Source: Candidatus Marinacidobacterales bacterium (lineage in GTDB: Bacteria > Acidobacteriota > Vicinamibacteria > Marinacidobacterales > DATDRI01). From it: DNA of 64,000 nt. Each line of letters starts with the position of its first letter. The first letter of the stretch is position 1. The DNA lies in contig OZ245365.1 in assembly GCA_965226495.1 (NCBI GenBank), forward strand, positions 2,368,001 to 2,432,000, given 5' to 3'. The notes under the pieces are model-generated. The model was not told where the DNA came from, searched no databases, and saw only the letters and a program-made list of their open reading frames with translations. Positions 56,376 to 60,566 of the stretch are shown piece by piece. Made by a program: the position numbers and the translations under genes.

Positions 56376-57137
56376 TTGGCTACCGTTATAACTATAGCGA
56401 ACCAAAAGGGTGGTGTAGGGAAGACGACGACGGCGGTCAACTTGGCTGCCGCTCTCGCTATGAAGAAACAGCCTACTCTCATCATCGACATGGATCCCCA
56501 GTCCAATACGTCCATATCCCTCGTGGATCTGGATACGGTTGAAAATTCAGTCTATGACGGGCTCGTTGACCTGTCGGCTGAGTTGAAAGATGCCATCTAC
56601 GAGACCTCCGTAGATAAGCTGCACCTTATCCCGTCCAAGATTTCCTTGGCGAAGTTGGAGAGCAAGCTCCTCGGTGAGCTGGATGGCCACTTTCGCCTGC
56701 GGGATCGGCTGTCGATGCTTCAGGGTCGTTACAAGTACATCATCATCGATACCCCGCCGACGTTGGGGCTGATCACGGTGAACGCGTTGGTCGCTGCCAC
56801 ACATTTGCTGATCCCGATACAGTCATCCTACTTTGCTCTCGAAGGGACAGGAGATCTCCTGGAGACCATGGATAAGGTGAAGGCGCGGCCAAACCCGGAC
56901 CTTCGACTGCTCGGAATCCTGATTACACTCCATGACCGCCGCACCACACTCTCCCGCGACGTTCGTAAGAAGATCAAGGAGAGCTTCGGCGAGAAGGTCT
57001 TCAAGACCGTCATCAATAAGAACGTTCGACTCGAAGAGAGTCCCGCCCACAAGGAGGCGATCTTCAGCTTCGCTCCGCGTTCCCGGGGGGCCTTCGAATA
57101 CTACAGCCTTTCAGAAGAGGTGATCGCCCGTGTCTAG
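56376..57137 (+). CDS. parA: ParA/Soj-family ATPase
   Basis: NQKGGVGKTTT, DMDPQSN, IDTPPTLG. Confidence 0.93.
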   Translation: MATVITIANQKGGVGKTTTAVNLAAALAMKKQPTLIIDMDPQSNTSISLVDLDTVENSVYDGLVDLSAELKDAIYETSVDKLHLIPSKISLAKLESKLLGELDGHFRLRDRLSMLQGRYKYIIIDTPPTLGLITVNALVAATHLLIPIQSSYFALEGTGDLLETMDKVKARPNPDLRLLGILITLHDRRTTLSRDVRKKIKESFGEKVFKTVINKNVRLEESPAHKEAIFSFAPRSRGAFEYYSLSEEVIARV

Positions 57138-57957
57138 AAAAGCCGGCCTACCGAGTTCCGTGAGACTCCGCCACTTTGATCGCGACCTCCACTTCGTGGA
57201 CGAGCTCAGCAGTCGCCAGGGCATTCCCATTGGGCGCATGGTTGCCATCGAATATATCGAGCCCAATCCCCACCAGCCGCGTCAGCAAATGGGTGACCTC
57301 AGTGAGCTCACGACTTCGATCCGAGAGAAGGGCATCTTGCAACCGCTGATCGTCCGGCGGCTGGGGGACAAGTTCCAGATCATCTCGGGGGAGAGGCGAT
57401 ACCAAGCTGCCCTACAAGCTGGTCTCACCGAGCTACCGTGCGTGGAGAGAGACATCGACGACCGAGAGACGGTCGAGGTGGCTCTTGTCGAGAACATTCA
57501 ACGTAAGGATCTAACGCCATTCGAGGAAGCAGAAGCGCTGGGGCATTTGGTCTCGAACTACGAATACACACACGAGGCACTCGCCGGCCGGTTAGGGAAG
57601 TCGAGGACTAGCGTTACGGAAATGCTGAGCCTCAACACCATGCCGGACGAGATCAAGAATCTATGTCGGCTCGCCGACATCAGCTCTAAATCATTGTTAT
57701 TGCAGATACTTAGGCAGGACAGCCCCGAGAAAATGATGGAATTGGTCGAACAAATCTCCCGCGAGGGCCTGAATCGAGAGCAAGTTAGGAAGGTGGCTCG
57801 GGCGCCGGCTCGCGGCCGGCCGTCGAATTTCGTCTTTAAGTATGGCCCGAAGGGGAGCCCATTCCGATTGAACTTGACGTTCCGCAAAGCGAAGGTGGAA
57901 AAGCACGAGGTCATTCGAGTCCTAAGACGGATTCTTAGCGAGCTCGAAACATCCTGA
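57130..57957 (+). CDS. parB: ParB/Spo0J-family protein
   Basis: PNPHQPR, GILQPLIVR, ISGERRY, ENIQRKDL, HTH. Confidence 0.92.
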   Translation: MSRKAGLPSSVRLRHFDRDLHFVDELSSRQGIPIGRMVAIEYIEPNPHQPRQQMGDLSELTTSIREKGILQPLIVRRLGDKFQIISGERRYQAALQAGLTELPCVERDIDDRETVEVALVENIQRKDLTPFEEAEALGHLVSNYEYTHEALAGRLGKSRTSVTEMLSLNTMPDEIKNLCRLADISSKSLLLQILRQDSPEKMMELVEQISREGLNREQVRKVARAPARGRPSNFVFKYGPKGSPFRLNLTFRKAKVEKHEVIRVLRRILSELETS

Positions 57958-58178: not shown

Positions 58179-58535
58179 ATGGGCCACCGGTACCGAGGGA
58201 AATCCCTCAAGGACGTACGCGAACAGAGGAACCTCAAGCTTCGTTGGATTTCGGAGGAGACCCGTATAACCACCTGGTATCTTGCCGGGATCGAAGACGA
58301 GCAGTTCGATAGGTTCCCAGGCAAGTTCTACTTCAAGAGCTTTGCCAAACAGTACGCGCAAAAGCTCGGCCTCAACGACTCCGAGGTCGTCCGCGACCTT
58401 CAAACCGCCTATGATACTTGGGAAGGAGAGCAACAACCGGCCCCGGCCTCGTCAACGAATGGAGTGCCGATCTCCGGCGCAAGCATCGTGGGCCTGCTAT
58501 ATCCTCCTGGCAAGGGTCGGATCCCAGAAGCGTAG
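58179..58535 (+). CDS. RodZ-like helix-turn-helix protein (no TM segment)
   Basis: G..LK..REQR...L..ISEETRI...YLAGIE...FPGKFY.KSFAKQYA..LGL. Confidence 0.8.
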   Translation: MGHRYRGKSLKDVREQRNLKLRWISEETRITTWYLAGIEDEQFDRFPGKFYFKSFAKQYAQKLGLNDSEVVRDLQTAYDTWEGEQQPAPASSTNGVPISGASIVGLLYPPGKGRIPEA

Positions 58536-58612
58536 TCTCGTCCTCCCTCTACCTGCGCGGCCCGGCCAGCGATGAGAGAAGCGACGAGCGTGCTGCGTGC
58601 TATAGTGACCTC

Positions 58613-59173
58613 ATGCGTATTAGGAGGTTTCTTTTCCTGAGTTTGTTGGCGTTCGGCGGCACCGGTCTCGCGGCGGAGGGGCCTGAAGTGTCTGCCGTGC
58701 CCGAAATAGGGGACCGCGCCCCAGACTTCGAGCTCAAGGACGCGGAGGGAAAGAGCTACCGCCTCTCGGAATTCAAGGGCAAGAATGTGGTGTTGGAGTT
58801 CATCCGCAGCGGCTCTTGGTGACCCTTCTGCAAAGCGCAGCTCGGCGAGCTGCAAGAATCCTACTCCGAAATCGGCAATCGCAACGCCGTCCTCCTCGTC
58901 ATTTCCAAATACGATGCCGAGGAGACCGCAAGCTGGCTGGAGAGCAATTCTTGGAGCTTCCCCGTCCTCTGCGACGGGAGGGGAGTGATCGAACTATACG
59001 GTATTTTGAACGAGGGAGCACTGAGCAAACCCAAGGCGGCCGGAATCCCACATCCGGCAACGTTCATCATCGACGCCGAAGGGGTCATTCGACTGAAGAA
59101 CGTTTGGGAGGACTACAAGAAGCGGACGTCTCCGGACACCATCTTAAGGGAGTTGGAAAAACTCAATGAGTAG
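58613..59173 (+). CDS. Probable selenoprotein: secreted AhpC/TSA (Prx-like) thioredoxin-fold protein, UxxC motif, Sec at TGA 58820-58822
   Basis: Continuous frame GDRAPDFEL...VVLEFIRSGSW-U-PFCKAQLGELQ...PHPATFIIDAEGVIR; the TGA sits at the first Cys of WCPFC; SECIS-like hairpin follows. Confidence 0.88.
58837..58853 (+). promoter_or_regulatory. Putative bacterial SECIS element
   Basis: GCAGCTC-GGC-GAGCTGC, perfect 7-bp stem, loop 21 nt after the UGA. Confidence 0.7.
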
Positions 59174-59705
59174 GCACAACAGCTGGCTAGCGATTCTCAC
59201 GCTGTTCTCCGCTTCCGGCGCTTTTGCTCAGAACATGGAGATTCCGGACTGGGAGAACTCGGTCCGCTTCGAGCTCGTCGCGTCGCAGGATCCCGTGCGG
59301 CCAGGCGACGGTTTCGAAGTCGCCATCCTGGCCGAGATCGAATCCGGTTATCATCTTTATGGTCCCGAAGAGAAGAAGCCGAATCGCACGGAGGTCGCGG
59401 TATCGGGAGACTTGGTCGAGGCCGATGATCCGATGTTCCCTCCGGTCGTCAGCCGGGACCTATCCGGACTCGGGACGTACGATCTCTACGAAGGAAAGAT
59501 CGCCATCCGCATTCCGCTTTCGGTTCATGAGGCCGCTTCCAAGGACAAACCGCTTCCGATTGATGTTAAGATCAACTATCAAGTCTGCACCGATGTCGCG
59601 TGCAGTGCCCCGACCAGCAAGACGCTGTCGCTTAAGCTTTCCGTGGCTGCGAAGGGGGCGGACGTCGAAAAACGGCACCGGAGTGTATTCAATTCGAAGG
59701 AATAA
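59166..59705 (+). CDS. Secreted DsbD N-terminal (alpha) domain protein
   Basis: Signal peptide; IESGYHLY, YEGKIAI, YQVCTDVAC; overlaps the upstream stop. Confidence 0.8.
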   Translation: MSRHNSWLAILTLFSASGAFAQNMEIPDWENSVRFELVASQDPVRPGDGFEVAILAEIESGYHLYGPEEKKPNRTEVAVSGDLVEADDPMFPPVVSRDLSGLGTYDLYEGKIAIRIPLSVHEAASKDKPLPIDVKINYQVCTDVACSAPTSKTLSLKLSVAAKGADVEKRHRSVFNSKE

Positions 59706-59728: not shown

Positions 59729-59803
59729 TGGAGCGTAGCCAAGCGGTAAGGCACCTGGCTGTTAACCAGGCCACCGGAGGTTCGAATCCTCCCGCTCCAG
59801 CCA
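59729..59803 (+). tRNA. tRNA-Asn(GTT) with encoded CCA
   Basis: Acceptor TGGAGCG/CGCTCCA, G73, CCA; anticodon arm CCTGG-CT-GTT-AA-CCAGG; T arm GGAGG-TTCGAAT-CCTCC. Confidence 0.93.
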
Positions 59804-59864
59804 AATTGCTGCTAACAAACACGCAGGTTAGGCAAAAACGCGGTGCCAGTAACAAGGACGTTCT

Positions 59865-60396
59865 GCTCCAGCCAATTTGCTACCGGAACGTCCCGGCGTC
59901 CCAAAACAAGAGCGGTCTGCTATCGAGGGTATTGCGGAACTCCCCGAGGCCGGCGGCTTACCCGGGTTGTTGGAGCAACAACCTCCCGCTCCAGCCAAAC
60001 TTTTCAACAGTTTACGAGAAACCCTCAAGCATCACTTTAGGGTCAGGGAAGCACAACCAAGGTCAGGGGAGATCGACAGAGATGAAAGAACTATTGGAGC
60101 TCATGGCGAGAGCACTCGTCGACAATCCGGATGAGGTCTCGGTGTCGGAAGTCGGCGGACAGCAAGTGGTCATCTTCGAGCTCAGGGTGGCTCAGGAGGA
60201 TTTAGGAAAAGTGATCGGCAAGCAAGGGCGTACTGCGCGGGCGATCCGCACGATAGTGTCGTCTGCCGGCATGAAGCATGGTAAGCGGTATCATCTCGAA
60301 ATCATTGAGCCCTCGCCGCGGCCCGACGACAGATAGTCTGTCAGGCGAGGGTGAAAAGACGGAGTTGGGGGCGCAGCAACCTCCCGCACTAGCCAT
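59865..60396 (+). repeat. Dispersed copies of the tRNA 3' end (att-like)
   Basis: 59865-59881 GCTCCAGCCAATTTGCT; 59982-59999 CCTCCCGCTCCAGCCAAA (identical to 59788-59805); degenerate copy CCTCCCGCACTAGCCA near 60380. Confidence 0.75.
60082..60336 (+). CDS. khpA: KH-domain RNA-binding protein, KhpA-like
   Basis: [19 protein letters not shown]...[18 protein letters not shown]. Confidence 0.88.
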
Positions 60397-60566
60397 TTCC
60401 CTCCAAAGCTGAAAAAACCCAGAGACTGTCGGGCCACTGCAGGGCAACCGCAAGCCTGGCGTCCATTTAGTCCCAGCCCCGGCCGGTGTTGCGTGCCGCG
60501 ACGGTCTGGTGACATAATTCCGCGCCGCCATTGCGGTGGCCGCAGCACCGAAGAGGAGAAAATACG

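Follow-up and report, generated by a model that had tools for sequence, protein, structure and literature searches.

The window analysed here is a stretch of 64,000 nucleotides (C1:2368001-2432000) from the genome of a Candidatus Marinacidobacterales bacterium, assembled as a single contig of 6.34 Mb. It carries two overlapping genes, the first for a redoxin whose reading frame contains a TGA codon and the second for a small protein resembling the alpha domain of DsbD. An earlier note on this DNA had read them as an exported selenocysteine (Sec) redoxin and a stand-alone alpha domain that together form a reducing relay in the periplasm. The features of the pair, with the evidence used to assign them, are as follows.

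58613..59173, + strand: gene predicted to encode an exported selenoprotein (186 residues), a thiol:disulfide oxidoreductase with AhpC/TSA fold (read-through translation, Pfam, orthologues)
58613..58675, + strand: signal-like peptide, residues 1-21, MRIRRFLFLSLLAFGGTGLAA, no cysteine (Cys) (sequence; hydrophobic N-termini in orthologues)
58820..58822, + strand: UGA codon read as selenocysteine U70, in W-U-P-F-C (codon conservation; DNA runs)
58829-58831, + strand: codon of Cys73, the partner of U70
58837..58853, + strand: hairpin GCAGCUC-GGC-GAGCUGC, resembling a selenocysteine insertion sequence (SECIS), within codons A75 to Q81 (conservation, covariation)
59166..59173, + strand: overlap of 8 nucleotides (nt), ATGAGTAG, between the start of the alpha-like gene and the stop of the redoxin gene
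59166..59705, + strand: predicted gene for a stand-alone secreted DsbD-alpha-like protein of 179 residues, stop TAA at 59703-59705 (Pfam DsbD_N, AlphaFold2 (AF2) model)
59166-59228, + strand: signal-like peptide of the alpha-like protein, MSRHNSWLAILTLFSASGAFA, followed by QN
59586..59603, + strand: putative redox Cys pair C141-x4-C146 in YQVCTDVACSAP (invariance; alignment with the N-terminal domain of DsbD, nDsbD)

The redoxin frame runs from the ATG at 58613 to a TAG stop at 59171-59173 if the TGA at 58820-58822 is read through; genetic code table 11 cuts it at that codon. The read-through product has the sequence MRIRRFLFLSLLAFGGTGLAA-EGP...EFIRSGSW-U-PFC-KAQLGELQE... Its signal-like N-terminus, already pointed out in the earlier note, is plain in the sequence, and comparable hydrophobic N-termini are found across the orthologues. 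As there is no Cys in residues 1-21 the signal is not of the lipoprotein type, and cleavage would fall between MRIRRFLFLSLLAFGGTGLAA and EGP. A twin-arginine (Tat) signal, hinted at by the residues RIRRF, was rejected because RIRRF is not kept in the orthologues.

The genome set comprised 41 genomes, the window's own and 40 relatives from three families of one order. The redoxin was matched at E <= 1.2e-44 in 33 of them, with one in-frame TGA in each best match. Twenty of the loci were fetched (L019-L038, L019 being the window's own; L022, from genome G007, is counted among the 20 and omitted from alignments A2 and A4). The TGA lies at the identical codon in all 20, always in W-U-P-[F/Y/H]-C, and on either side of it the sequence is conserved in a single frame (49-81% identity). 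Contigs of two independent DNA runs from different studies (X12 record 1; X2 records 16 and 17) have no alternative letter at 58820-58822. Neither TGC nor TGT, the letters that would have pointed to an error, therefore occurs there, and the lone variant listed near the codon is a synonymous C>G at 58825.

The genome also encodes the machinery for which the earlier note had called. SelA is found at 474 bits, the SelB winged-helix domain at 58.5 bits within a frame of 660 residues, SelD at 332.6 bits and a canonical tRNA-Sec at 70.9 bits in Rfam. The selD gene (C1:5697778-5698710, L004) has an in-frame TGA of its own, and the selenophosphate synthetase is itself probably a selenoprotein. Homologues with Cys in place of U were likewise found: P0007 and P0008, at about 40% identity to the redoxin, have W-C-P-[IV]-C, and Cys is common at this position in the family of a fused paralogue described below. 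Two other database relatives, P0002 and P0006 (W-W-P-Y-C), were not counted as Cys homologues; the W of P0006 may be a TGA rendered as Trp by the gene caller.

The hairpin, noted earlier as a perfect stem with a GGC loop, begins 14 nt past the TGA. Its 7-bp stem is formed by GCAGCTC (58837-58843) and GAGCTGC (58847-58853), with the GGC loop at 58844-58846. Across the 20 loci the amino acids of its codons Q-L-G-E-L-Q (Q76-Q81) are invariant and the nucleotides nearly so. Synonymous sites within it are frozen, with Leu as CTC and Glu as GAG in 20/20, and the base preceding the stem is G regardless of which residue is encoded. In the Gly codon of the loop the third position varies freely (8 loci have C and 12 have T; the wider set has C, T or G). 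In that wider set TGG-TGA-CC plus the hairpin was present in 65 of the 71 loci scanned, giving an alignment of 65 sequences, 40 of them distinct. Several loci are the same genomic place fetched twice, and the hairpin counts are therefore over distinct sequences. Over these 40, 99.3% of the stem cells pair; shifting the 3' arm by 1-3 columns lowers this to 15-58%. Five of the seven stem pairs never vary, though they lie at synonymous sites, and one pair covaries (G-C 27, A-U 11, G-U 2, A-C 0). The covariation score was matched by 0 of 500 shuffles, a figure that sequence relatedness can inflate, the relatives being non-independent samples, so we take the covariation as support for a constraint on the RNA and not as a probability.

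In the thermodynamic test the 71-nt hairpin stretch was unexceptional (z = 0.55), so the case for the hairpin is built on conservation and covariation. It matches no Rfam family at the gathering threshold, the sole Rfam match in the window being the tRNA-Asn. Bacterial SECIS elements have a stem-loop shortly 3' of the UGA with a G in the apical loop; here the loop is GGY or GGG and the stem starts 14 nt past the UGA, as these rules describe. The same segment is abundant in environmental DNA. Many unrelated metagenome contigs pile up on 58808-58895, matching at 90% or better, and the 40-50 nt of TGG-TGA-CC and hairpin are covered 50-100 times as deeply as the flanks. Because these contigs are unrelated, the cassette of W-U-P-x-C and hairpin is common at the DNA level to many paralogous selenoprotein genes in those communities. 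Contigs from RNA libraries (X18, X19) cover only 58500-58678, which takes in the end of the upstream gene and just 66 nt at the start of the redoxin open reading frame (ORF). RNA pieces over 58816-58857 were rejected as expression of the gene body: they have 2-3 differences, most continue into unlike sequence, and they belong to related genes.

On this comparative evidence we conclude that the TGA at 58820-58822 is a selenocysteine codon. Alternatively, the codon could be a genuine stop or reflect a sequencing error, which would make the locus a pseudogene or two unrelated short ORFs. This reading has on its side the split that table 11 makes, a hairpin that Rfam does not recognise, and public gene calls that stop or start at the codon; among these are P0003-P0005, C-terminal pieces of 103-105 residues labelled 'peroxiredoxin', the kind of split that had been foreseen for standard gene callers. 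It has against it a codon that never moves in 20 loci between halves conserved in one frame, the agreement of DNA contigs from two studies, a complete Sec machinery and homologues with Cys at the Sec position, and we consider it extremely improbable.

Two observations touch on Sec decoding in this genome more widely. Two tRNA-SeC(tca) genes are predicted at a distance of 2.3 kb from each other (C1:173953-174050 and C1:176351-176447; L011, L012). The first is the canonical one; the second has acceptor-stem mismatches and scores 45.6 bits, just below the gathering score of 47, and could be a duplicate in decay or a variant of a Sec-like tRNA. Further redoxin-like matches with one TGA lie at C1:2972147-2972578 and, in a frame of 720 residues, at C1:3548940-3549398, and the lineage looks rich in selenoproteins.

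The redoxin matches Pfam AhpC-TSA (PF00578) with 111.7 bits (E 2.8e-32) and Redoxin with E 3.1e-18. No NCBIfam model reaches its cut-off. ResA scores best (57.1 bits; cut-off 170), followed by BCP, SelL-related and other models, and the redoxin falls far under the cut-offs of all peroxiredoxin (Prx) models. Aligned to the Prx 2ywn, U70 takes the place of the Thr of PxxxTxxC, C73 of the peroxidatic Cys, R65 of the Pro and P151 of the catalytic Arg, and both the PxxxT/SxxC motif and the catalytic Arg are absent. U stands in place of the first C of W-C-x-x-C, and the alignment puts a Pro at the cis-Pro position. Judged from these alignments, the site is a thioredoxin (Trx)-type U-x-x-C with a Pro at the place of the cis-Pro of thiol-disulfide oxidoreductases and is not a Prx site. 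A peroxidase role is unsupported because the catalytic Thr and Arg of Prx are not in place. The label 'Prx-like UxxC' given in the earlier note is thus right as to family, without implying a peroxidase.

By its sequence the redoxin belongs to the selenoprotein family described as 'Prx-like thiol:disulfide oxidoreductase' (PF00578, UxxC). In the accessible text of the Global Ocean Sampling selenoproteome paper (PMC2398784) this Prx-like UxxC family is 'Prx-like 1', and that of a 2026 review (PMC13188914) lists Prx-like UxxC selenoproteins as 'predicted with high confidence'. As described there, the family shares with the window's protein the AhpC/TSA domain, UxxC at the CxxC position, an in-gene SECIS hairpin just past the UGA and the existence of Cys homologues. 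Unlike that description, the clade of the window is predicted to be exported and is tied to a DsbD alpha domain, as an overlapping next gene or as a fusion. The words 'periplasm' and 'signal peptide' have no occurrence in the accessible text of the review, nor do 'signal peptide', 'periplasmic' and 'operon' in that of the selenoproteome paper, and the fused domains described for the family in these parts are different ones (PP2C; Unknown_3 with CxxC).

The redoxin also resembles ResA, TlpA and CcmG. ResA is its best NCBIfam match, ResA structures are among its sequence and fold matches, and it has the W-x-x-x-C active-site context and the Pro at the cis-Pro position. It differs from them in its score, far below the ResA cut-off, in having Sec for the first Cys, in having no cytochrome c maturation genes nearby, and in a signal that looks cleavable and would not be a membrane anchor.

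The alpha-like protein scores 40.7 bits with Pfam DsbD_N (PF11412), above the cut-off of 25 (E 2.8e-10), and matches no NCBIfam model. Its AF2 model, made with 13 orthologues, has a pLDDT (predicted local distance difference test score) of 88.6. When this model was used in a fold search, the 13 best-ranked PDB rows listed (ranks 1-18) were all nDsbD from E. coli or Neisseria, with a template modelling score of 0.57-0.74 per target. The matches include chains of alpha:gamma, alpha:CcmG and alpha:DsbC complexes, and the N-terminal domain of ScsB came next in rank. A PDB search with the single sequence gave no match to nDsbD, which was reached by profile and fold search only. The orthologue profile aligns YQvCtdva-CsaP with YQGCADAGFCYPP of 3pfu (E. 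coli nDsbD) at E 0.003. C141 and C146, the only two Cys of the protein, correspond in this alignment to the nDsbD catalytic pair, which we take to be C103/C109, in a loop one residue shorter (spacing 4 versus 5). Both Cys, along with 42 further positions, are the same in 13/13 aligned orthologues. A DsbD-like protein from one relative (L125) has the same C-x4-C spacing in its N-terminal part (YQACDDNVCYRP), so on this comparison the shorter spacing is normal for the clade. The ORF has no transmembrane domain and is not joined to a DsbD beta domain. From model and profile together we read the protein as a free DsbD-alpha domain with the immunoglobulin (Ig)-like fold of nDsbD, much as the earlier note had it.

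The comparison with E. coli DsbD is instructive. That protein has the domain order alpha-beta-gamma, and the alpha:gamma, alpha:CcmG and alpha:DsbC complexes have been solved (1vrs, 1z5y, 1jzd). The two systems have in common the Ig fold, a Cys pair on a beta-hairpin in the context YQxC...C..P, a partner of Trx fold with W-C/U-x-x-C and a periplasmic location, which here is predicted. Unlike the E. coli domain, the alpha domain here is free and apparently secreted, or fused to the C-terminus of a redoxin, and it is not joined to a membrane domain. The Cys spacing is 4 and not 5, the Phe and Tyr of the cap loop are apparently not conserved, and the Trx-fold partner is of AhpC/TSA type and carries Sec.

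Redoxin and alpha domain occur together as a unit. The alpha-like gene lies directly 3' of the redoxin in 18 of the 20 loci, with overlap of start and stop in 14 of those 18; the two exceptions are L035, cut by a contig end, and L023, where it is missing. The 8-nt overlap in the window suggests that translation of the two genes is coupled. A scan for the alpha-like gene, with one genome per species, gave 65 loci, 49 of them orthologues (47-74% identity) and 16 distant (24-32%). All 49 are in records labelled Acidobacteriota, Vicinamibacteria or 'Candidatus Marinacidobacterales', on which their taxonomy is based, and in 44 of them the redoxin is directly 5'. The 16 distant loci, from Myxococcota, Planctomycetota and others, have no P0001-like redoxin within 2.5 kb.

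The strongest link between redoxin and alpha domain is a natural fusion of the two in the same genome. This protein, P0098 (C1:1155457-1156362 region, - strand; L040:1432-2517), begins with a signal-like peptide, followed by an AhpC-TSA domain whose motif is W-U-P-Y-C (U87) and then by a DsbD_N domain containing YQACDDNIC, and a similar hairpin, CCAGCUC-GUG-GAGCUGG, lies 13 nt past its UGA. Twelve loci yielded 10 full-length fused orthologues, one of the others being cut and one broken. The AF2 model of the fusion forms one body (pLDDT 84.9, predicted template modelling score 0.80). A Foldseek search with it gave Prx and ResA matches to the N-terminal domain alone and is uninformative on the alpha domain and the interface. 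In the protein database 1021 relatives of the fusion were found at E <= 1e-5. Among the best 120 of these, C-x4-C is present in all and W-C-P-x-C in 55, and 18 are matched by neither motif pattern. The remaining 47 are pieces of fewer than 300 residues that begin just after the motif, annotated as 'hypothetical proteins' of about 270 residues; to judge from where they begin, they are what a gene caller leaves of the Sec form.

A third DsbD_N domain in the genome is found at the C-terminus of a YyaL/DUF255-like protein of more than 598 residues (C1:254687-254974 region; L041:1486-3282, - strand). It has YQACDDTRC, and the protein also gives weak matches of six-hairpin glycosidase type.

Proteins of the ResA/TlpA type are known to be direct clients of the membrane protein CcdA. 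The sole DsbD_TM protein in the window's own genome is a CcdA of 245 residues with neither alpha nor gamma domain, encoded next to a c-type cytochrome gene, and there is no DsbD_2 match above the cut-off. DsbD_TM frames across the 41 genomes comprise 33 that are short (about 245-415 residues) or uninspected, two of the 33 genomes having uninspected frames of 881 residues, seven of about 580 residues and one fragment (G040). The one frame of about 580 residues that was scanned, from L125, contains a beta domain, a gamma domain and, in its N-terminal part, a stretch reading YQACDDNVC.

A free alpha domain alongside a bare CcdA is reminiscent of the systems of alphaproteobacteria that have a detached ScsB-alpha domain and CcdA. 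For such organisms the accessible text of Cho et al. (2012, mBio, PMC3322552) proposes a route from CcdA through an exported Trx-like protein to the separate alpha domain. The ScsB-alpha domain described there is of a different and larger class than the alpha-like protein of the window. The Trx-like 'gamma' partner is not named in that text; here a candidate adjoins the alpha domain or is fused with it, and would be a selenoprotein.

We propose that the products of the overlapping pair form a two-protein thiol/selenol-disulfide relay module located in the periplasm of this Vicinamibacteria-class acidobacterium. Whatever the order of transfer, it is highly probable that the redoxin is a real selenoprotein that works with the alpha-like protein. 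Sec would be inserted at the UGA with the aid of the hairpin 14 nt downstream. The ResA/TlpA-like product would be exported by the Sec secretion route, U70 attacking and C73 resolving, and U70/C73 and C141/C146 would form a transient Se-S or S-S link like that of the exchange between DsbD gamma and alpha. Electrons would pass from cytoplasmic thioredoxin to the 245-residue CcdA, from CcdA to the Sec-redoxin, which takes the place of DsbD-gamma, and from the Sec-redoxin through the alpha-like protein to periplasmic client proteins. The analysis itself shows the Sec codon and hairpin, the Sec machinery, the two folds, the conserved gene order and a fused form. Export, direct binding between the two active sites, the order of transfer and the clients are what we infer from these comparisons, and for the order from CcdA through Sec-redoxin and alpha to clients we see about an even chance. 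It is favoured because the CcdA is bare, because CcdA is known to serve ResA/TlpA-type proteins and because the same route has been put forward for detached alpha domains. The coupling of redoxin and alpha that the earlier note proposed is thus well borne out by the overlapping gene order and the fusion. Its direction of transfer, from alpha to redoxin, is less secure, the opposite direction fitting the gene content at least as well.

A number of observations weigh against this picture. The ccdA gene is unlinked, about 0.86 Mb from the pair. Seven of the 41 genomes keep the pair alongside a DsbD_TM frame of about 580 residues; this rules out that the pair exists only where DsbD has been reduced to CcdA, so that it cannot be explained simply as a substitute for DsbD domains that are absent. 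The redoxin is free-standing and of AhpC-TSA/Redoxin type, while DsbD-gamma, as seen in the L125 DsbD, is of Thioredoxin_7 type; we propose that the redoxin works like gamma without being a gamma domain. In the alpha-like protein S-G-L-G aligns with the E-F-Y-G of the nDsbD cap loop, whose Phe70/Tyr71 shield the Cys pair, in an alignment that is itself weak (E 0.003). None of the split-type redoxin orthologues examined has Cys at the U position, and P0002, the one full-length database relative, has W-S-S-Q-C at the motif. Nor is the pair obligatory. Besides the redoxin locus that has no alpha-like gene, five of the 49 alpha-like loci have the gene right after parA-parB-rodZ-like with no redoxin. 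All five of these genomes keep selA, which rules out a loss of the redoxin paired with loss of the Sec machinery; four have the fused paralogue and two a split redoxin elsewhere.

Electrons could instead flow the other way, with alpha as the donor and the Sec-redoxin as the terminal reductase of a specific periplasmic substrate, for example a sulfenic acid, the disulfide of a protein, a protein with a copper site or perhaps a peroxide. Alpha would in turn draw its electrons from some exported thioredoxin resembling gamma or, in genomes with a full-length DsbD, from its gamma domain. In other selenoenzymes Sec is typically found at the terminal, substrate-attacking position, which would suit such an arrangement. 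So would the E. coli alpha domain, which donates to the Trx-fold clients CcmG and DsbC, their complexes 1z5y and 1jzd being among our fold matches, and the YyaL/DUF255-like protein, whose DsbD_N domain could be an electron entry port fused to a client. In the seven relatives with the longer DsbD_TM frame, a gamma domain like that scanned in L125 could reduce the free alpha. This direction has to contend with the bare CcdA of the window's genome and of most relatives, which offers no gamma and so requires an extra donor, and with ResA/TlpA-type proteins taking their electrons directly from CcdA with no alpha domain between. In the split genes and in the fusion alike, the redoxin precedes alpha, and the missing Thr and Arg leave a peroxidase role unsupported. 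In favour of the reverse order, ScsB of Caulobacter feeds periplasmic Prx-type proteins, according to the accessible text of PMC3322552. Overall we regard this reverse order as rather unlikely, if still a serious candidate.

It could also be that the two proteins are merely co-expressed and exchange no electrons, the redoxin working alone with CcdA and the alpha-like protein being a substrate, a chaperone-like binder or an Ig-fold protein that handles a metal such as copper, with a structural Cys pair. The five loci where the redoxin is missing while the alpha-like gene and the rest of the neighbourhood are as elsewhere, and the redoxin locus without the alpha-like gene, would fit this. So would the apparent lack of the cap-loop aromatics and the weakness of the nDsbD sequence match (profile E 0.003-0.005; none with the single sequence). 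It is at odds with a family of more than 1000 proteins in which both domains form one polypeptide, predicted to be exported, with C-x4-C in all of the best 120. The invariant Cys pair aligned with the catalytic pair of nDsbD and the start/stop overlap in 14 of 18 loci also speak against it. To our knowledge, thiol-disulfide exchange with Trx-fold proteins is the only documented role of the nDsbD fold with its Cys pair. We consider co-expression without transfer improbable.

Returning to the order from CcdA to redoxin to alpha, a further and more tentative step, which we rate a little short of an even chance, would be to see the whole as a modular DsbD in three pieces. CcdA would pass electrons to the ResA-like Sec redoxin, an exported selenoprotein with the role of gamma, and this through alpha to the clients, and the fused family would be the reductant hubs of CcdA-only bacteria.

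Most of what is understood about reducing pathways in the periplasm comes from E. coli DsbD. The Prx-like UxxC selenoprotein family is already known, as is a detached alpha domain, for which the ScsB class is the precedent. In the openly accessible papers searched, we found no account of a Sec-redoxin that is coupled with a DsbD-alpha domain or joined to one in a fusion; fused domains are the subject of Figure S1 of PMC2398784, which may be relevant here. How alpha-dependent clients are supplied in bacteria that have only CcdA is a question raised in the accessible text of Cho et al. (2012, PMC3322552). The locus of the window and its fused paralogue offer a concrete candidate for the missing Trx-like link, and one based on selenocysteine. 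They also point to a whole clade of selenoproteins, predicted to be exported, in marine and soil Acidobacteriota, mis-annotated as truncated 'peroxiredoxins' or as 'hypothetical proteins' of about 270 residues. If the proposed relay order is right, Sec would be used for electron transfer from protein to protein in the cell envelope. If the three-piece DsbD is right, Sec would sit in mid-relay, speeding the steps of attack and release, and would not face a substrate; the more than 1000 fused redoxin-DsbD_N proteins would then be widespread, unrecognised periplasmic reductant hubs of CcdA-only bacteria.

The neighbouring features in the window are as follows.

56376-57137: parA, upstream of the pair
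57130-57957: parB, upstream of the pair
58179-58535: RodZ-like helix-turn-helix gene, 118 residues, upstream of the pair
59729-59803: tRNA-Asn gene, downstream of the alpha-like gene

The order parA-parB-RodZ-like is retained in relatives, even in those without the redoxin. On the other side of the pair, within 59729-60397, the 3' end of the tRNA-Asn, CCTCCCGCTCCAGCCAAA (59788-59805), is repeated at 59859-59876 (78% identity), 59982-59999 (100%) and 60380-60397 (78%), and the repeats flank a small KH-domain ORF. They look like stacked remnants of attachment sites, left by past integrations at the tRNA gene. In relatives (L025-L034, L051-L059) a conserved protein of about 148 residues with one predicted membrane segment (...AAGDMMYFIYFD..VMRDYVYVS) is often encoded 3' of the alpha-like gene, frequently followed by a flavin-reductase-like ORF of about 160 residues. 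In the window the tRNA-Asn occupies the slot that the gene for the 148-residue protein has in these relatives.

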